Below are positions 248 through 47,618 of a stretch of 64,000 nt of DNA, in pieces. A program made the translations under genes and the position numbers. The stretch comes from Octopus vulgaris (taxonomy: Eukaryota): positions 134,478,001 through 134,542,000 of the forward strand of contig OX597815.1 of the NCBI GenBank assembly GCA_951406725.2. Direction: 5' to 3'. Below the pieces are notes generated by a model. It made no database searches. It was not told the DNA's origin and was given only the letters and a program-made list of their open reading frames with translations. How positions within the stretch are numbered: the first letter of the stretch is position 1; the number at the start of each line of letters is the position of its first letter.

Positions 248-556
248 CATCATCATCTGTTTTCCATGCTAGCATGGGTTGGATGGTTCGACCGGGGTCT
301 TGGAAGCCAGGAGGATGCACCAGGCTTCAGTCTGATCTGGCAGTGTTTCTACAGCTGGATGTTCTTCCTAATGTCAACCACTTCGTGAGTGTAGTGGGTG
401 CTTTTTACATGCCACCGGCACAGGTGCCAGGGGAGGCTGGCAATGACCACGATTGGTTGGTGCTTTTTACGTGCCACCGGCACGGAAGCCAGTCAAGGCG
501 GCGCTGGTGGCGGCCACATTCGGATGGTGCTTTTTACATGCCACCAGCACAGGTAT
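248..556 (-). mobile_element. 3' end of RTE-type LINE (tail with (CAT)n)
   Basis: Reverse complement of the 3' UTR seen at 4250-4607 and 9790-10092. Ends in (ATG)n on the element strand. Confidence 0.8.
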
Positions 557-1630
557 CACATATAATGTGAAATAAAAGCAAGGGGTATTGTCATATTTTG
601 AAATTCTGATAAATCTGGTAATGATGATGATTTTGATGGGTGAGGGTAGTGTAGAGATGTTGGGCAATCTTTTAGGGGATCAAAATTGTTAAAAGTTTAA
701 AAAACCCTCGACATTTAAGAGCCCTATGTGTGTGTGTGCACGTGTGATTTTTGGTACATGGAAGCATCATTTTTAATACTATATTCATCAATATATTTAG
801 AGTGAAGTTTTAAATTCGCTTTAGAATCTCTTCACACATCTCAATGTTTTGAGATTCTCCTGCTAAAAAAAAAAATCACAAAAGTACCAAAAAGCATAAA
901 ATAATTTTTCAATATAGCTAAGTATTTCTAACCCTGCTCCTAAATGGTTATAGAACTATAATAACTAGGGACCATGTATATCTACCAACCAAAGGATTAC
1001 TTCTTTTTTTAACCCTTTAACTGCAAAATTAAGCTTTATGGCTATTCCAGTTATACTCAAGATCATGCATGAGTAATACAAAATAATGTAAATATATAAG
1101 CATTACATTTAATAGAATAATCTGGATGGTAAGGGTTCAATATTTACCAAAAAATGGAATTGCTATTTTCTGCAAATCGTATTGCCTCAATAAACTTGAT
1201 ATATCTTAGCAAAAAAATAACTTCACGTGTGAAATACTTCAACAAAAAATAGATTAGTATATAAAACTGCTTTCTACATTTAAGAATAATGAAATTTTGA
1301 GTGGCTGTATCAGATTTCTATTGTAAAGAGGGTTAAGTTAGATCTCACCATTTTCATTATGGCTGTAGCGCTACACATACTCTCTTAGATTTGTTCCAAG
1401 CATTAAATATCTTTGGATTATTTAATTTCTAAACCATTTTATTTTCTTACACTGTGATTCATTCATCATAACTTGGGTAAATACAGTAATGAAGGCTGGG
1501 GTTTATTGTTGAACTCAGAAATTAAAAATGGTCTGGAGTTGCCTTTCATATTTAACCAAAATAATTCAAATAATGATAGTCATTCAGTTTTTTCCTCATC
1601 ACGTTTATTTCTAATTAGCTTTTTAATCCT

Positions 1631-1995
1631 AGGCATGGTGTTTGGTTAATACATTGACGTTGCAATCATGTGGTTCCAAGTTCAGTCCCACTGTGACACC
1701 TTGGGCAAGTGTCTTCTACTATAACTCCAGGATGACCAATGCCTTGTGAGTGAATTTGGTAGACAGAAACCACGTGGAAGCCCATGTGTGTGTTTGTCTC
1801 CTGTCTCTCTATTTAACAACCAGTGTTGGTTTATTTACATCCCTATAACTTAGTGGTTTGGTGAAGGATAGAATTAAGTACCAGACTTTAAAAAGTAAGT
1901 ACTGGGGTCAATTCATTTGATTAAAACACTTCAAAGTGGTTCCCCAGCATGGCTACAGTCCAATGACTAAAATGTAAAATGTAAAAGATTAAAGA
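1631..1995 (+). mobile_element. tRNA-derived SINE, family A (CORE-like accttgggcaagt; OR2-like), decayed
   Basis: Head tggtt...gttcagtccca, then accttgggcaagtgtcttctactata, then tail ccccagcatggctacagtc. Homologous to 36692-37066. Confidence 0.8.
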
Positions 1996-3307
1996 TTGTT
2001 AGTAACAACTATTGTTTATGTTAGTATCCAAAATATATCTGGGTGTATAGAATTGACAGTGTTACTGGAAAATTCTGTAGCATACCACAAAACATACAAG
2101 TCAATGTCATCATCATTTTCTTTTTAGCTGTTTTCCCATGCTGACACAAGTTGGCTTGGTTTGCTCCAGCATGGCATCTCACTAATTGTTGCAGCCCTTT
2201 GTCATCTCTTTCATGGGATTCAACACCTTGTGATAAGTTTTTATCATTTCTTCTCTTATTTTCAATAAGCTTCCTCCACATTGGCTGCTTGTCCCCTTTT
2301 TATAAGAAAGTATTGCTAGCTTTATTGTGAAACAATTTTGTTCTTTATTACATAATTCTGCTCGTTGATTATCTTCTCATAAATTGTGATTTAATTTTGA
2401 AAAATCATTTCCATTTACAATATTTCATTTACACTTGTCCAGTTTTTATCTCTTGTCTACTTATAATTTTTGGTCTCCTATTACTACTACTTCTACACGC
2501 ACAAAACCAGTGTTACTACTAATAGTATAGTACTACAGTTATAGTCTTGACTATTACTACCACTACTAATGTCTTCTCCACTATCACTGCTACTCTTTTT
2601 GCCATTTCATTATTACGTCATCCATCACACTTCGTTGCAATATATTTCTGTTTTGATTCCAAGTTCTGACTTGAAAATTATTTATAGCCTTTGCACTGAA
2701 TTTAATTTGTTCTTTGTTTGTTTAGTAGCGTTTTATTTTAGTTATGGTTGGTTGAGCAAGTGACTTTTTTTAAACTCGTTTTCCAAGAGAGTTCGTGTAT
2801 GCTTTATGTGCTTGGTGGTATTGTATGGGTTAACATGGTTTGAAGGAGACTGCTATTTCATTTGACATAGTTATTGGATCATGGCGTCTTTTGATACAAC
2901 TGAAAAGTGGGCGAGAGGGAGTGAATGTTTGCCTGCCGCCCCCATCTATGGCTTTGTTCAGGACTCCTAGTTCTATTTATATTCGCATACTTCCATCTCT
3001 TTTATTTTCTTAAACTGTAAAATGTATTTAAATTATTGAGAATTACTTGATTTTTGGTTGGTAGTTCCCAGAATCACAAATAGAAAAATTTCACTTCTGT
3101 TTTTTCCTCATTCACCAAAATAAGTTTTGATTCACAACCAGTTACTCTCAGTTGTGCACTTTTTAGATTTTTGTATTAAAAGTAATGTAGAAACAGGACA
3201 TTATGTGGACTATTCATTGATATGGGAAAAGCTTTTGACACTATAAACTGTCAAACTCTATAGCAAACTTGTAAAATATGGTATCAAGATGTACCTAGTG
3301 TTAGCTA

Positions 3308-4607
3308 TGGACACATAAGAGGTGCAGCAATATCAAAGGAAGGCTAACTAGGAAGATAGTTTTTGTATGTGGCAAATGCTCAGGTGCTATAAACACTGAA
3401 AATATGCAGAGAGCAGCTTCTGTTATATTTCAAGGAGAAAAATTACAAGTAGTTGATAGCTTCTGTTATCTAGGGGACCATGTCAGTAGCAGAGGTGGAT
3501 GCGCTGAAAGTGTAGCTGCTAGAATAAGAATAACCTGGGCAAAGTTCAGAGAGCTCCTACAACTGCTGGTGACAAAGGGCCTCTCGCTCAGAGTAAAAGG
3601 TAGACTGTATGACGCATGTGTATGAACAGCCATGCTGCATGGCAGTGAAACATGGGCTGTGACTGCTGGGACATGCGTAAGCTTGTAAGGAATGAAGCCA
3701 GTATCCTCCGCTGGATGAGTAATGTCTGTGTGCATACACGACAAAGTGGAAGCACCCTGAGAGAAAAGTTGGATTTACGAAGCATCAGATGTGGTGCTCA
3801 AGGTAGACGACTGCGCTGGTATGGTCATGTGTTGTGAATGAATGAGGACAGCTGTGTGCAAAAGTGTCACACCCTAGCTGCTGAGAAGAGGTAGACCCAG
3901 GAAGATCTGGGATGAGTGGTGAAGCATGACCTTTGAACATTGGGCCTTATCGAGGCAATGACTAGTGACCGAGTCTTTTGGAGATATGCTGTGTTTGAGA
4001 AGACCCGACAAGCCAAGTGAGACCACAGCCCATGGCCTATGCCAGTGGATGTAACCAGCCCACCTATACCCCTCATTCATTGGACAATAAAATTTGCTTG
4101 CGAAGACCTATTGAGGCAAGTGAAATCAAAATTGCTGACATGGCCGATGACAGTACCGCCTGACTTGCACTTGTCCCAGTGGAACGTTAAGAGGACATCC
4201 AAGCGTGATTGTTGCCAGGGCCTCGAATTGGCTCCTGTACCTGTGGCACATAAAAAGCACCATTTGAGCATGATCTTTGCCAGTGTTGCCTTAACAGCAC
4301 ATGAAAAATAACATTCGAGTGTAGTTATTGCTAGTGCCACCGGATTGGCTCATGTGCAGATAGCATGTTAAAAACATCTTTTGAGCATGGTCATTGCCAG
4401 AATCGCCTGACTGGCTCTCATGCCGGTGGCATGTAAAAGCACCCACTACACTCTTGGAGTAGTTGGCGTTAGGAAGGGCATCCAGCTGTAGAAACTTTGC
4501 CAAATCAGACTGGAGCCTGGTGCAGCCTTCTGGCTCACCAGTCCTCAGTCACTGTCCAACCCATGTCAGTATGGAAAGTGGACGATAAACGACAACGATG
4601 ATGATGA
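3308..4607 (+). mobile_element. 5'-truncated RTE-type LINE (decayed RT C-terminus plus 3' UTR)
   Basis: Broken frames give VDSFCYLGD..ARIRITWAKFRELL..LRVKGRLYDACV..GSETW..RRLRWYGHV..GRPRK. The 3' UTR has internal repeats and a (GAT)n tail. Confidence 0.9.
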
Positions 4608-7194
4608 TAAAACAATGTGGTATATAGACTGATTTGGACTTTTCCCTTGGAACTTCCCTTAATTTACTGATGTTAAGCAGGTTTTTATTTTGTCAAATTT
4701 AATCTCTTCTAGTTTCACAATTGTCACTAAGAATATTATCTCACCCAGGTATTACTGTATTTTGTGTTTTTTTTTTTTTTTTTCAATGCATATCTGACCA
4801 CCAACTTTAAGGCTGATGGTCTTTCAAATATCTTTTGAATCTGCGAGTGTTCATCCCTGGTATCAGATTCTAGTCTATTCAGACTATCTTTCATAAATAT
4901 ATTTTCCTATTATTAGGTTTCTTTTATCTATATAGATACCCTATAGAGAGCAGGCCTGTTTCCTAATAACAATGAAACAAATAAAAATGTATTTCCTCAA
5001 CATATTGTCCAGTAGCAAATAATTTATTGAATACTGACAGTTTGAGCTATTGTTAGTTTATTTTTAGAAAAAAGCTGTTTTGTAATGAATTTCCTCTCTG
5101 AAATTGAATAGCCAGAAACTCTTAACTGAATGCATTCACACCTGTCTTTGCAACCACATAGTTTCAGGTTCAGTCTCGTATTCACCCTGGGCAAGTATTT
5201 TCTATAATAGCCCTGGCTTGACCAATGCTTTTCAAGTAGATTTGGGAGATGGAAACTGAAACAAGTCTATTGTATTTGTTCGTGTGTGTATGTTTTTGAC
5301 TTCTTGTCATGACATCATGTAATTGTTGTAAATTAAATCTCATTCATTTTTCAATAATCTGTGGAAACATGTCTGGCTGTGGGTAAATATTACCTTGCTT
5401 GGAAATAGGTGAAGGTTGGTGAGAGGAATGGTATCCAGCCATAGAAAATCTGCCTCAGTAATATCTGTGTGGTCCATGCAAATGTGAAAAAGTGGACATT
5501 AAAACGATTGCTAAATGTGAATGGAACCTGTGGAAGGGGAAGACCTGGGATGAAGTAGTGAAGACCAACCTCAGATCGTCTCATGGGAGAAACGACAATG
5601 GGTTGAAATAATTGGTGATTCTGTGAAGTGGTTGACATTTGGAAGGGCATCCAGCTGTAAAAACTGTGTCAAAAGTTCCAACCAACCATAGGTTGATTGA
5701 AGGATGATGGTGATGCCAAAAGTGACCTCACCTGTGCTGGTGCCATGTAAAAAGCACTCAGTCCACTCTATGAAGTGATTGGTGTTAGGAAGGGCATCTG
5801 GCCATAAAAACCATGCCAAAGAGACACAGTAGCCTGGTGTAGTCTCCTACCTGGCTGGTTCTTGTCAAACCATCCAACCCATGCCAGTATGGAAGACAGG
5901 TGTTAAATAATGATGGTGGTGATAATTCTCTCTGCTTATGATCTATTTATCTTAGCAAAAATAAATGAAGTCCTAAAAGCATATTTATGTCTGTATCCTT
6001 GCATCCAAACTGTACTTGCCGATCCTTTCCCACAATTCATTTTCCTAACACCCATCCCTCCATCACTTATCTATCTACGGTGCCATTTACTGAGCAGCTT
6101 TAATTATGAGAGCAGACTAAATATTTCACCCCCACCTTCCTTTGTACTACCATTTATCTTTCTCTCTTTGGAATCTCTTTGTCATCCACCTGCATTCTCA
6201 ATATCCTCCCTTATCACTTTATTTTCCACTGATAGCTCCTTTCCTCTGAACACCCTCTTAGATCTGCCATGATATCTCTCCCATCTTTTTGTCAGTCACT
6301 ATATCCACTACTACGTACCCTGACCTCTGTCACTTTGCAACCCTCTCTCTCTTCCACTCACTCTACATCTCCCTATTTCTCGTTTATCTACGGATTTATT
6401 GTTTTACTATACTATGTGTTGTGGCTTATGACCTGATCCACTCTTTTATACCTTTATCTGTGGTAGCTATCTATATACTTTTAACTGTTTGGAATATTCT
6501 AAGACTTGCCTTTTTCCTGCTTTTTTTTAATGTTATTTATTTTTATCTTGTTCTTCTGTATATAAATTTTAATGTATATTAATAACCTTATATGAAATCT
6601 AAAATATTTGTAAACTCATGTTTTGGTAGTGAGAGAGAAATATAGCGCTGTAAATGATGTGAAAAGCAGGAGCAGATGGAATTGGAAATTCAAGCACCTA
6701 GGAGCTTGTTTTCTATGTTTAGAACAGAATCATTTCTTTCCACCCATCTCTCTCTCTCTCTGTTTTATATACATTGTATAGAGAAAACACCCGAAGCCTA
6801 TACAAAAACACTGAATATGTGTTTATTATTCATCCAAAGTAAACAGTACGTGTGTGCTGTTTACGTCACAGTAACAATATGTTTAGACGGAGCAAATAAT
6901 TTCAAATGAATACAGAGAATACGATTGGTTAAAACTCGCAGATTTAAACTACGTATAAACTTATAAAATACATTTTTGTCAAAAAAACTAGTTGAAATTA
7001 TTGTTTTCTTTTGACACATTCTACCAGTATACGAAGTTTCAAATTATTTAGTTAACTAGAAAAATCTGGCTTTCAAAAAGAAAAGATCCAGCTAATTTTC
7101 CCCCATGGCCAGAGATTTCCAGAGAATATTGGAAATGAATGGCATTCACTTACAACCTCCATGAGATGTCAGGACACGCGCCCACGCACGCGGC

Positions 7195-40800: not shown

Positions 40801-41893
40801 TACAAGAAAGTGTTATTTCTGTTTTAAAATCCTTCATTCTTTATTTAACTAAACTTATTTCATAATGCACCTCAATCTTTACACACACAAACGCACACAT
40901 TCCGCATACGTATAAACGTGCAGTTATATAATAAATACATACATACATACAAACAAACATACACATACACACACAAATACATACATACATACATGCATAC
41001 ATGCATACATACATACATACATACATACATACATACATACATACATACATACATACATAAAGGAATACCATTACTGATCATTTCTCGTGTAACACGTCAG
41101 AAGTACCCGTGCATAGGGTTATTGCACTCGCGGTTGGATTCACCCGGCTTCCTTGCTCGCCGCGGTGCCTTCCTCCTCGATCGAGTATCGGAAAGTGACT
41201 TTCCAGGCGATTGCGCAGCCTAAAGTTTTAGGTACAATAAGGCTTGCACGACAGCTCACAAAGCCTCTCCACCCTGTCGCCATGTTCCAAAGAAAGGCCA
41301 GGGCAAAATATTCAGTGTCAATATGGGTGGTAGGCTCGGGAATGTGGGAGTGCCATGATCTCAAGCGAAAGCAAAACGTTCCCAAAATGTTTAATACCAT
41401 CCCCTACATATCCAGTCTTGTATCAAAGTGACGTTCTCCATGGGAAATGCTTTAACAAAAGCTTAGAGGTGCCTTCTTCCCAGTGGTCGTCCAGAACGCT
41501 GGACACCGACCCAGAATTTCTGAGTGCTTGTGCTATTGCTAGATAGTCCTTGAACCTACATTAGACCTTTTGACGCGTCCTGGTTTTAGTCCTGGTGGGT
41601 TTCTAGCAACCCTCATCACCAGGCAAGCTTAGTGATTGCTACATGGTTAGTTGGCGACGAAACTACCGTGCAACACGTTGCACTGCATTCCATGTTGCCA
41701 GCAGCACTCACGTAAGGCCTCACAAGTGACCTTACATACATACATGTACATCATATATATTGAGAGAGGAGAGTTTGAGAAAGTCTGCAAGTATATGATG
41801 AATTTCAAATGGGAATAAAACGGATATGTGTGTCTGTATATATATATATATATATAGTATGTGTATGTTGCTCTCCGTTTATTCCCTCTTATG

Positions 41894-41930
41894 TCTTCCT
41901 GCCGAAGAGCGTAGGCTCGAAACGTAAAGA
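41894..41930 (+). ncRNA. Degenerate minimal type I hammerhead ribozyme (PLE terminal-repeat type)
   Basis: tcttc-CTGccGA-a-GAGC(gtag)GCTC-GAAA-CG-TA-aaga. Stem II and the palindromic ACGT stem III are intact, but core A6 is mutated. Confidence 0.55.
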
Positions 41931-42017
41931 AATTTTATATTTCCACGAGCGTCAAATTATTACATTTGCTTACTGTTCATACAAGTGCCTACGCCTTTAT
42001 TTTTCTATAAATTTGAA

Positions 42018-42492
<475 letters not shown>

Positions 42493-43870
42493 TGATTGAT
42501 TGATTGATTGATTGATTCTAGTTTCAGCTTATGAGCTGTGGCCATGCTGGGGCACCGCCATTTGGTGTTGCTACTTGGTTTCACTTCACGAAAGCTTTCT
42601 AGCAACTGCCATTTGGTGCATGAGAGAGTTCGATGCAGCTGCCCTCATCTGCCCCTCCTGCCGTGAAGTTGGTTCATCTGGGACACCTGACAGGAAGAGA
42701 TCCAGCTTCATTTTAAAGACATCTGCATCCACCCCATGCAGGTCTCTCAGGTTCTTCGGGAGGATATTGAAGAGCTGTGGGCCTCGGAAGCCCAGGCTAT
42801 CACAGAATCTTGTCCTACATCTTGATGGCAAGTTTGGAGTCCTAGGCACCACGCAGTGGCGCCCAGTTCTGGCATTTGCGTAACTCTCGATGCCAAAGCT
42901 CAGGACACGTCCCTCCAGGATCTTCCAGATGTATATTATGGCATATCTTTCCCGCCTACGCTCCAGGGAATATAGTTTTAATCTCTTGAGTCTTTCCCAG
43001 TAGCTTACATTCTGCATAGAGGCTATCTTCTTCGTGTAGCTACGTTGGATCGCCTCGAGCTCTGTGATCAACTTGACACTGGATAGTGACCATAACTGAG
43101 AGCAGTAGTCAAAGTGGCTTAGGACAAGTGTCCTCCAGAGGACCATCATGGTTTCTTGTTCTCTTGTTCTAAAGGTTCTGAGGATCCATCCGGCCAGTCG
43201 TCTACATTTCATTGCCAATTTAGCAACATGTACACGAAAGGTCGCGTCATCACTCATGTAAATACCTAGGTCACGCACTGATTGTGCCTCTGGGATTGCT
43301 ATTCCTCCGGGTCCAGTGTATTCATTGGGTATTGCATTTAGTTTTGCATGCTGATAGTATAGAGCTTGAAACTTTTCAGCATTGAACTGCATGCTATTCT
43401 TTTCGGCCCACTTGTATATTTTGTCTAGCTCACATTGCAGGTGTTTAGTGTCCTCAGGGTTCTGTATTGCCTGTGAAACTTTTGTATCATCTGCATAACT
43501 TCTGATCGTGGCTCTCTGCGTGGCTGAGGGCATGTCTGAGAGGGCCATTATGAACAGTAGTGGTCCCAGAACAGTGCCCTGCGGAACACCGCTCACTATT
43601 TGCGTGTTAATGGAAGTGGCCCCATTGGCCACTACCACCTGACTTCTATCTTTCAGAAAGTCATGAAGCCATTCTCCCAGTTTTCCAACTATGTTGAGAT
43701 CACGCAGTTTGTGACATATCATTCCATGATCGACTTTATCAAAGGCCTTTGCAAAGTCGAGATATATCACTTCCACATTTGAGTGGTTGAGCAGCCGTTT
43801 CAGCACCCAGTCATAGTGTTGTAGGAGCTGAGTTAAACAGCTTCTCCCTGGTCGGAAACCATGTTGGGTG
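42493..43870 (-). mobile_element. 5'-truncated, young CR1/L2-group LINE with uninterrupted RT frame
   Basis: ORF 42586-43926 has QHGFRPGRSCLTQLL, YLDFAKAFDKVDH, SGVPQGTVLGPLLF and YADDTK. Short 3' UTR and (ATCA)n tail at 42493-42517. Confidence 0.93.
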
Positions 43871-44073
43871 TCGAGAGTTACGCAAATGCCAGAACTGGGC
43901 GCCACTGACTCCAAACTTGCCATCAAATTATTACATTTGCTTACTGTTCATACAATTTTTCTATAAATTTGAACTAATATATATATATCCCCGATGTAAA
44001 CGGTAAAACTAAGCACGTGTCTGTCTTGACACAGAGAGCTGGGGTTAGTTTTACAGTTTGCATCTCGATGACC

Positions 44074-44152
44074 GAATGTACTGATGAAGTCACGGACATT
44101 TGAATTATGTAAGTAATTCTTTTGTTAAAGACCGAAACCGAGGTATGCATTT
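44074..44152 (+). ncRNA. Type I hammerhead ribozyme (GUA site, cleavage predicted after 44145)
   Basis: Stem I gaatgta/tgcattt, CTGATGA at 44081-87, long stem II (gtc/gac, gaca/tgtt, gaattat/gtaattc), GAAA at 44134-37, minimal stem III CC-GA-GG, then TA. Confidence 0.78.
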
Positions 44153-44619
44153 AAGTCTGTTTTTTATTTAAATTTTCATATGTCCTGCCCGCCAAATTTG
44201 GTTCTGGTGTTCGCTGAATTCTTCCTCTAGAGAATTTCCCTTGTAGTTTGATCGTTGATGATCTCTTTCTAGCATTCGGCCGGCTACCTAGCAGGCCAGC
44301 CCTGCCTATATACACATATATTAGAATTTTCCCTGACTTCTCAGATTTTTTGAATGCTGGACTACTGGTTTTAAATTGATATTAAAATTAATATTAATTT
44401 ATCTCCCTCATTACTTAAATATTGAAATAAATACGTTCCCTAGTAGTAAGCACTAACCGCAGTGAATTATTCACTGCAGTCCTTCGCTTCAGGAATTTCT
44501 TAGCGCGCCGGAACCAAGACATTTGAAATTTTATCCCCGATGTAAACGGTAAAACTAAGCACGTGTCTGTCTTGACACAGAAAGCTGGGGTTAGTTTTAC
44601 AGATTGCATCTCGATGACC

Positions 44620-44698
44620 GAATGTACTGATGAAGTCACGGACATTTGAATTATGTAAGTAATTCTTTTGTTAAAGACCGAAACCGAGGTATGCATTT
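44620..44698 (+). ncRNA. Type I hammerhead ribozyme, second tandem copy
   Basis: Same sequence as 44074-44152, shifted by 546 bp. Confidence 0.78.
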
Positions 44699-44959
44699 AA
44701 GTCTGTTTTTTATTTAAATTTTCATATGTCCTGCACGCCAAATTTGGTTCTGGTGTTCGCTGAATTCTTCCTCTAGAGAATTTCCCTTGTAGTTTGATCG
44801 TTGATGATCTCTTTCTAGCATTCGGCCGGCTACCTAGCAGGCCAGCCCTGCCTATATACACATATATTAGAATTTTCCCTGACTTCTCAGATTTTTTGAA
44901 TGCTGGACTACTGGTTTTAAATTGATATTAAAATTAATATTAATTTATCTCCCTCATTA

Positions 44960-44996
<37 letters not shown>

Positions 44997-45014
44997 GTAT
45001 TTATATTTATATTT

Positions 45015-45472
45015 AAAATGAGTGTGAGAAATTAGATATTAATTTAATTAACATCGATTTCACACCAGTGGTCTAGCATATAAAAAGACTGAAGATTCAG
45101 TAAAATTGTATTATATACATATTAGAGGGAAATCGCTATGTGGACACACTTATGCTAGAAATAGATCCGCTATGGTCTTACCACTAAGATTTGTTCTCAA
45201 GAAAAATTTAGCAAAACAACCAAAACGTAATGGAGCAAGACAAAAGAAAAAGTAATAAAAATATGGATTATTCACATACATGTTTCACTATTAACATATT
45301 ACGTAATTTTACTTACGTAAATGTCCGTAGATCATCGGTGTGACCGTCCAGATGAATATAATTTGCAGGATTGCATACTAGGACGTCCGCACAAAGTCAG
45401 ACTTGTAAACAGTTCTTACCCATTACACTCGTGGTTACTATTTCAAATGTCCTCATTTTGGCGCGCTAAATT
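45015..45472 (-). mobile_element. Diverged relative of the 546 bp hammerhead element, opposite orientation
   Basis: Minus strand shares ttagcgcgcc..gacatttgaaat, cggacattt, tttctagcat and atgct.gac.actggt..aaattaatat with 43989-44963. Bounded by TA-rich repeats. Confidence 0.75.
45272..45343 (-). ncRNA. Type I hammerhead ribozyme with CCGAUGA core variant (GUA site)
   Basis: Minus strand reads tcaca-CCGATGA-t-cta..acgtaa(gtaaaa)ttacgt..tag-t-GAAA-CATG-TA-tgtga. Perfect 5 bp stem I and palindromic stem III. Confidence 0.72.
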
Positions 45473-45668
45473 ATGTATATATGTATATATATGTGTATAT
45501 ATGTATGTATATGAATATGTGTATATGTATGTATGTGTTTATGTATATATATATATATATATGTATATATATGTATGTGTATATGTATATATATATGTAT
45601 GTATATATGTGCGTATATATATATATGTATGTGTATATGAATATATATATATGTGTATATGTATATGG

Positions 45669-45699
<31 letters not shown>

Positions 45700-45883
45700 T
45701 ATATGTATATATATATGTATATATATTTATGTATATATATATATATATGTATGTATGTGTATATGTATATATATATATATATGTATATGTATATATATAT
45801 ATGTATTTATGTGTATATGTATATATATATAAGTATATATATATATATGTGTATATATATGTATGTGTATATGTATATATAAA

Positions 45884-46215
45884 GACCCCCTTCGGTCATG
45901 AATGACCATGGGATTGCACCTAGAAAGTTACCCTTCTAGACACAAGTCCGGGCAAGGTTGTTTATGGAAGACCAGCAGTCACCCATGTATACCAGCCTCC
46001 CTCTCCACGCCACCAGTGTTATCCAAGGGAAAGACAAAGGTCGATACAGCTTGGCACCAGTGACGTCGCAACTCATTTCTACAGCTGAGTGAACTGGAGC
46101 AACGTGAAATAAAGTGCCTTGCTCAAGAACACAACAAGCAGCCCGGTCCGGGATTCGAGCTCACAACCTCACGATCGTAAGCTCGACGCTCTAACCACTG
46201 AGCCATGCGCCTTCA
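45884..46215 (-). mobile_element. Young tRNA-derived SINE, family C
   Basis: Minus strand ggcgcatggctcagtggttagagc (A box)..gagctcgaatcccgg (B-box-like), then gtgttcttgagcaaggcacttta, and a 3' tail ending catgaccgaagggggtc. Inserted in TA-rich repeats. Confidence 0.85.
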
Positions 46216-47003: not shown

Positions 47004-47610
47004 TATCTAGGTATTTCATCTTTCAGATGTTCTCCCTGAAGGTAAGACAATTTTTTTCAAGTTTGTTGCACACACGCATTTTTGCTAGTACATACGCGGT
47101 GAAGCTATACATTAGCGTCGTATTTATTACGTTCGCTATTTTCCAGTAAATATCGGTACTTCGTTGTGCCATATATTTACTTCTATGTATAATTTTCCCT
47201 AACGAGCTATTCTTTACTGGAAAGCAATACTCTCGTATTGCATTACTATTTTTATTGAAACTTCTTCACCGTTCTCGTTCTGTCAGCGTTTTGGCGTTTC
47301 AGTAGAGTGTATTGGCATTAATGTGGCAACATCTGAAATGTTGTCGGGTATATGTTGGCTGATGAAGATAAATCAAGTATATGTGTGCAGACATATCTTG
47401 AAAAATCTGAAACTGGTCCCACATTATCCCTATCTAGGTATTTCATTTTTCAGATGTTCTCCCTGGAGGTAAGACAATTTTTTTCAAGTTAGTTGCACAC
47501 ACGCATTTTTGCTAGTACATACGCGGTGAAGCTATACATTAGCGTTGTATTTATTATGTTCGCTATTTTCCAGTAAATATCGGTACTTCGTTGTGCCATA
47601 TATTTATTTC

Positions 47611-47618
<8 letters not shown>
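47004..47618 (+). mobile_element. Second non-coding partial tandem element (427 bp period, ~1.4 units) with a hammerhead
   Basis: 47004-47191 is repeated at 47431-47618 and runs into (TA)n. Confidence 0.8.
47352..47424 (+). ncRNA. Type I hammerhead ribozyme (GUC site, cleavage predicted after 47418)
   Basis: atgttgg-CTGATGA-agat..tcaag.atatgt(gtgcag)acatat-cttga..atct-GAAA-CTG-GTC-ccacat. Canonical core, extended stem II, stem I with one bulge. Confidence 0.85.

Follow-up and report, generated by a model that had tools for sequence, protein, structure and literature searches.

A tandem 546-bp repeat with a hammerhead motif in each copy as a candidate animal non-LTR retrozyme in Octopus vulgaris

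Layout of the array and its surroundings

The DNA analyzed here, a 64-kb (64,000-nucleotide) stretch of the Octopus vulgaris contig OX597815.1 referred to below as the window, is rich in microsatellites. Two (TA)n tracts enclose an array of 978 nt, which consists of 1.79 units of a 546-bp non-coding unit (Table 1). The segment 43986–44417 recurs at 44532–44963 with an offset of 546 and three mismatches (44036, 44057, and 44189). These data agree with the original prediction of two near-identical 429-bp repeats forming a tandem 546-bp unit with one hammerhead in each copy. The repeat measures 429 nt from position 43989, and 432 nt if a microhomologous 3-nt TAT, which may belong to the left microsatellite, is counted. 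All the three differences (44582, 44603, and 44735) are changes to A in copy 2, and one of the sequencing runs described below, X1, has the letter of copy 1 at these sites.

The predicted 546-nt monomer has a GC content of 37.7%, which is below 50%, and is strongly self-paired in comparison with shuffled sequences, with a z-score of −5.3 for the linear fold and −4.8 for the circular fold (−137.2 kcal/mol). The longest ATG frame round the unit has 16 aa in the hammerhead orientation and 93 aa in the opposite one, in line with the earlier statement that no credible ORF is present. No RT/GIY-YIG ORF was found at the locus, so the locus does not hold an autonomous Penelope-like element (PLE). Searches of the locus for tRNA genes and for an exact Pol III B-box returned nothing, and motif scans gave 0 matches in two sets of metagenome contigs and one of viral contigs.

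The (TA)n flanks of the original prediction were found on both sides, as (AT)6 on the left and about (TA)15 on the right, while the neighbor on the far side of the right tract had been overlooked. That neighbor is a diverged sister element, which was matched to the 546-bp unit by nhmmer with an E value of 1e-16 and reached a local score of 250, whereas none of 50 shuffles exceeded 51. The sister represents a different circular permutation relative to the 546-bp unit, and its end lies about 20 nt beyond the end point of the 546-bp family. The possibility that the sister is the second arm of the 546-bp insertion was considered and ruled out, since 65% identity cannot arise from one RNA template.

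Other repeats were observed in the window. A 5′-truncated LINE (42517–43922, minus strand), which we take to be CR1/L2/Jockey-like from its look, contains a 453-aa open frame with an RVT_1 match (E 1.6e-22), ends in a (TGAT)n tail at 42493–42517, and is present at very high copy in all runs examined. It is flanked by two copies of a 70-nt sequence plus (TA)n (41952–42021 and 43923–43977, the right copy minus 15 nt), which may represent an unusually long target duplication, and the 546-bp element sits in the (TA)n of the right copy. The region 41870–42021, presumably a Penelope-type end, is the end of a repeat that passes into (TA)n. It contains a string resembling a minimal hammerhead in degenerate form (CCGAAGA ... 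GAAACGTA), the minimum-energy fold of which is not a hammerhead. On the other side, a 188-nt direct repeat (47004–47191 and 47431–47618) shows 97% identity between copies 427 nt apart and ends in (TA)n.

Table 1. Features of the 546-bp array and the sister element (positions in the window)
Feature	Position	Strand	Remarks
Left (AT)6 target microsatellite	43977..43988	.	Last 3 nt (TAT) microhomologous to the unit
Full 546-bp unit, copy 1	43986..44531	+	GC 38%, non-coding; joint 44531→43986 in 4/4 DNA runs
Long internal hairpin of the 546-bp unit	43993..44064	+	Self-match E 5.5e-5
Type I hammerhead 1	44070..44157	+	Core 44081–44087; predicted cut after 44145
Predicted 546-nt monomer bounded by the cut sites (would-be circle)	44146..44691	+	Inferred from the cut sites
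Partial copy 2, 432 nt	44532..44963	+	3′ boundary 272 nt past the cut site
Type I hammerhead 2, same sequence as hammerhead 1	44616..44703	+	Predicted cut after 44691
Right (TA)n, about (TA)15, common to the 546-bp element and the sister	44964..44992	.	Sequence
Diverged sister element, 476 nt	44995..45470	−	Identity 65% (500 columns); tail-to-tail orientation to the 546-bp element
Type I hammerhead of the sister	45265..45349	−	CCGATGA variant core at 45338; predicted cut after 45277
Long TA-rich microsatellite bounding the sister	45472..45880	.	Sequence

Hammerhead motifs of the 546-bp unit and its sister

The hammerhead of the 546-bp unit has the complete type I core (CUGANGA, GAAA, and UH) together with stems I, II, and III. 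As had been claimed, identical motifs lie 546 nt apart, with CTGATGA at 44081/44627, GAAA at 44134/44680, and N17 at 44145/44691. In hammerhead 1, stem I contains an internal loop, stem II is long and branched with a GUAA-capped hairpin, and stem III comprises 2 bp closed by a CGAG loop. A relaxed type I scan of the window returned three motifs, including two in the 546-bp element and one in the sister, vs. an average of 0.05 over 60 block shuffles. The hammerhead models of Rfam gave no match in the window at the gathering score and none in the region 41000–46000 at E values up to 10, which is likely due to the long stem II. Rfam matches of miRNA type were dismissed as spurious, nearly all of them lying on microsatellites.

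The canonical G10.1–C11.1 pair at the base of stem II is replaced by an A44088–C44133 mismatch in the 546-bp unit and by U–U in the sister. In an alternative register, the 546-bp unit would have an extra A, a G–C pair, and a bulged C at this place, and an extra base is described in the available text of PMC4209133. The A–C mismatch had been noted before as a feature that may reduce activity. Its presence was confirmed, whereas its reading as loss of activity or decay is weakened by the U–U of the sister and by the axolotl hammerhead HHR_Amex2, which is likewise mismatched at the base of stem II (U–U), is cleaved to 22% in 1 h in monomeric form and further in dimeric form, and belongs to repeats that form circles, according to the accessible part of PMC7229834. 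Because the sister is also non-standard at 10.1–11.1, the mismatch seems to characterize the superfamily rather than to reflect decay. Positions 44088 and 44133 had no change among the variants listed for eight runs, and two further, unlisted C>T variants of X1 could include 44133. A literature search on 10.1/11.1 mismatches returned nothing relevant.

Comparison of the two hammerheads, with the registers anchored by hand on the cores, revealed that the sister retains 18 of the 19 pairs of the 546-bp unit, including seven via two-sided changes and one via a one-sided change, and that its stem III is minimal and palindromic. The internal loops CGR/NUAA of stem I and ACG of stem II are common to both. 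With 35% of the sequence diverged, maintenance of the fold through seven two-sided changes implies that the putative ribozyme is under selection. Within the 546-bp family, one contig of run X16 combines 44072 C>A and 44155 G>T with 44079 T>C and 44108 T>C, the last two being changes from wobble to G–C pairs, and every pair is kept. The changes 44090 T>C and 44131 A>G were found, unphased, in all four DNA runs described below. In the same runs, 44155 G>T accounts for 14–34% of depth vs. 1.5–11% for its partner 44072 C>A, and the distal part of stem I would therefore often be broken. Core invariance taken by itself was not significant, with 0 of 14 core positions among the 36 variable positions of 546 (p 0.38).

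Structure prediction placed the hammerhead fold 1.7 kcal/mol above the local minimum. Two hammerheads were predicted to co-fold at −41.2 kcal/mol vs. 2 × −17.2 kcal/mol, with stem III cross-paired. For the circular RNA, the predicted pair probability of the active helices is only 4–10%, and forcing them would cost 2.7 kcal/mol.

These properties bear on the main rival to the explanation that we favor, namely that the array is the same non-autonomous, PLE-mobilized element but was copied from linear, uncut multimers of a tandem source, with a hammerhead that is weak, protein-dependent, or vestigial and with no role for a circle. The non-standard base of stem II, the 2-bp stem III, and the low share of the active fold in the circle would all suit such an origin. 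In the published data as far as accessible, eight of nine predicted Xenopus retrozyme dimers did not cleave in vitro and one did, and hammerhead mutations in an Anolis PLE left insertion in vitro unchanged, with unprocessed RNA as the dominant substrate (PMC11167929). Contigs of the runs guessed to be RNA span the cut site, as both uncut and ligated RNA would. However, the two-sided changes that maintain the hammerhead fold speak against this rival, as does the cleavage of HHR_Amex2 with its mismatch at the same place. Taken together, we consider the linear-multimer origin a real possibility, though clearly not the probable one.

Dispersed copies and the insertion footprint

The locus was compared with contigs of public sequencing runs, including 4 of 14 runs of DNA or unknown kind from four studies with three organism labels (the DNA runs, compared over the region 43800–44534) and 4 of the 10 listed runs guessed to be RNA (X9, X16, X19, and X20), which may be DNA. 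The runs may be from other species, as the best one shares 0.65 of sampled words. The median depth of the unit exceeded that of the flank bin 43925–43949 by a factor of 516–5,920 in all four DNA runs, a ratio of summed contig depths rather than a copy number. As a rough figure, the unit is present in hundreds to thousands of copies, and these are dispersed, with differing flanks at a common 3′ end. The four RNA-guess runs covered the unit wholly or partly. Their ratios of unit to LINE median depth were 0.11, 0.49, 0.06, and 0 for X9, X16, X19, and X20, respectively, vs. 0.07–0.16 in the DNA runs. These values give no indication of enrichment, contig depth being a poor measure. Circles would escape poly(A) libraries.

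The head-to-tail joint 44531→43986 was found with letter variants in all four DNA runs, and with 544-nt length variants in two of the four RNA-guess runs. The original prediction had named a duplication unique to the locus or an assembly artifact as what would refute it, and the recurrence of the joint makes both unlikely. A local tandem duplication or misassembly of a single repeat copy would agree with the letters, rare elsewhere, that both units have, and with the absence of a contig spanning from flank to unit among the contigs listed. Against it stand the recurrence of the same joint with sequence and length variants and the three sites at which the two units differ, and we give it very little credence. 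Two single observations were also made. A joint 44480→43994 in run X2, which leads back by 487 nt, may point to a variant with a shorter unit. An X19 contig with a depth of 2.7 matches 44069–44144, after which, 1 nt short of the predicted cut, unrelated sequence follows; this single, weak contig could be a copy of a cleaved RNA end.

The 3′ boundary of copy 2 lies within 5 nt of the end of other copies (equivalent to 44417–44422). Contigs of three of the four RNA-guess runs stop at 44422, two of them with AT-led loose ends. Past this position, (AT)n follows in X16 and another AT-led repeat in X20; therefore, at least two other insertions end at 44422. Opposite-strand joints 44040/44278 were detected in two of the four DNA runs, and X16 has one that connects 44037 to the reverse of about 44222–44244. 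The inversion joints at 44037–44040 correspond to the upper part of the long internal hairpin. Thus, the family displays the partial tandem, inverted arms, (TA)n target, and fixed 3′ start that are signs of PLE mobilization, the last-named end and the arms being known from a few short contigs. According to the accessible parts of the sources, PLEs are typified by inverted 5′ arms, a preference for microsatellites, and partial tandem insertions (PMC8557442 and its preprint), and the Anolis PLE protein cuts both strands of AT-rich DNA and initiates reverse transcription from fixed positions inside the RNA, downstream of the hammerhead (PMC11167929).

Both units of the array have 44053 A, 44307 T, and 44332 C (positions of copy 1), at which 97.6–100% of depth reads otherwise in the four DNA runs; at 44332, another letter accounts for 100% of depth in all four. 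The private letters common to both units suggest a young or lineage-specific insertion in which the two units probably derive from a single molecule or source. They fit copying of a circle, and equally a homogenized tandem source or a young subfamily, and are no proof of a circle.

The same footprint was weighed against another reading, in which the 546-bp unit is the pLTR of a coding PLE and the locus a 5′-truncated partial tandem of it. PLEs likewise have a hammerhead, inverted arms, partial tandems, and (TA)n targets (PMC4209133 and PMC8557442, as far as available), retrozymes have been reported as related to pLTRs in Xenopus, in the accessible part of that report, and 464 further contig loose ends beyond those listed could hide a branch into an ORF. 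Against this, the unit passes through a 114-nt spacer back to its own start with no ORF between in all four DNA runs, and one-base indels are frequent in the family (44127, 44238, and 44277). A 53-aa frame after the hammerhead had been examined as a possible PLE protein; the protein search gave three weak matches to repeat-rich PKD/Ig-like proteins, which were judged to be chance, and none to a PLE. Moreover, the hammerhead is extended, unlike the minimal type that the available text of PMC4209133 gives for PLEs. We therefore regard the coding-PLE reading as improbable, and as less likely than copying from linear multimers.

Relation to known retrozymes and a possible origin

On features that can be tested from DNA, the assignment of the locus to a subfamily of the known metazoan non-LTR retrozymes is well supported, with cleavage and the circle as predictions. 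The retrozymes of coral, mussel, and axolotl (Cervera and de la Pena, 2020; PMC7229834, accessible part) are alike in their tandem units, which are non-coding and low in GC and contain a single type I hammerhead, in their self-paired monomer, and in a short stem III suited to cleavage as a dimer. They differ in size, with RNAs of 170–400 nt and units of 150–450 bp vs. 546 nt at this locus. The 546-bp element also has a much longer, branched stem II and only 1.8 units. Its length had been considered unusual for an animal retrozyme, a view that no longer holds: the unit exceeds the RNAs of PMC7229834 but falls within the range of 51–972 bp given for the retrozymes of Li, Clavereau and Pollet (2026; bioRxiv 10.64898/2026.07.22.740005), as far as that preprint was available. 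The latter study describes vertebrate non-LTR retrozymes as PLE derivatives, and the 546-bp array resembles them in having at least two units with complete hammerheads and a proposed mobilization by PLEs. The 35 genomes covered by the available part of the preprint are those of vertebrates, three insects, and one anthozoan. Our literature search, with the invertebrate supplement of PMC7229834 and the supplements of bioRxiv 10.64898/2026.07.22.740005 outside its coverage, found nothing on cephalopod retrozymes.

Two other groups share part of this organization. PLEs and pLTRs (PMC4209133, PMC11167929, and PMC8557442, each in part) are alike in partial tandems, inverted arms, AT-rich or (TA)n targets, and an internal RT start downstream of the hammerhead, but differ from the locus in the RT/GIY-YIG ORF and the minimal hammerhead. 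Plant LTR retrozymes, as summarized in the accessible text of PMC7229834 and bioRxiv 10.64898/2026.07.22.740005, also have two hammerheads in direct repeats bounding a monomer of several hundred nt. However, they are characterized by type III hammerheads, a 4-bp target duplication, and true LTRs, whereas the 546-bp element has type I topology, microsatellite flanks as its target, and a permuted tandem; the locus thus falls outside the plant class.

On balance, we lean toward the explanation that the array is a recent insertion of a high-copy, non-coding 546-bp animal non-LTR retrozyme into (TA)n, made by a PLE enzyme that copied a self-cut and rejoined RNA circle about 1.8 times. A read-through transcript would carry both hammerheads; Pol II is the expected polymerase, as Pol III would terminate at the T6 runs at 44160 and 44346. 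The two hammerheads would pair through their palindromic stem III loops and, probably as a dimer, cut out 546 nt; metazoan dimeric hammerheads with cross-pairing of stem III are described in the available text of PMC4209133. A host ligase, e.g., RtcB, would then close the monomer, as RtcB does in vitro with axolotl and mussel retrozyme monomers in the published data as far as accessible. The active fold would be a minor state in the circle. A PLE endonuclease would nick (TA)n, and the PLE RT would begin at a fixed internal site about 272–277 nt past the cut site, cross both cut sites, and stop 157 nt beyond the upstream one. In the literature as far as available, mobilization of retrozymes by PLEs and copying round the circle have been proposed rather than demonstrated.

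The retrozyme reading of the original prediction is strengthened by the multi-copy, non-coding, low-GC, and self-paired nature of the unit, its family-wide joint, and the covarying hammerhead, while the points on size and on decay by mismatch have lost weight. Beyond this, we tentatively suggest, as a more specific and doubtful proposal, that the array may be the fossil of a Penelope RT that went 1.8 times round one 546-nt circle from a fixed start. In this proposal, the extended type I hammerhead, with its long branched stem II and an obligate mismatch at the base of that stem, would form a new tertiary contact through the ACG and CGR/NUAA loops, cut as a dimer in the precursor, and be off in the circle.

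The 546-bp unit and its sister form a natural pair in which covariation can be followed for an extended hammerhead, one that is missed by Rfam and would tolerate a 10.1–11.1 mismatch. Moreover, the young dispersed copies, with their fixed ends and shared private letters, would make PLE mobilization and copying of a circle testable from the genome and long reads.
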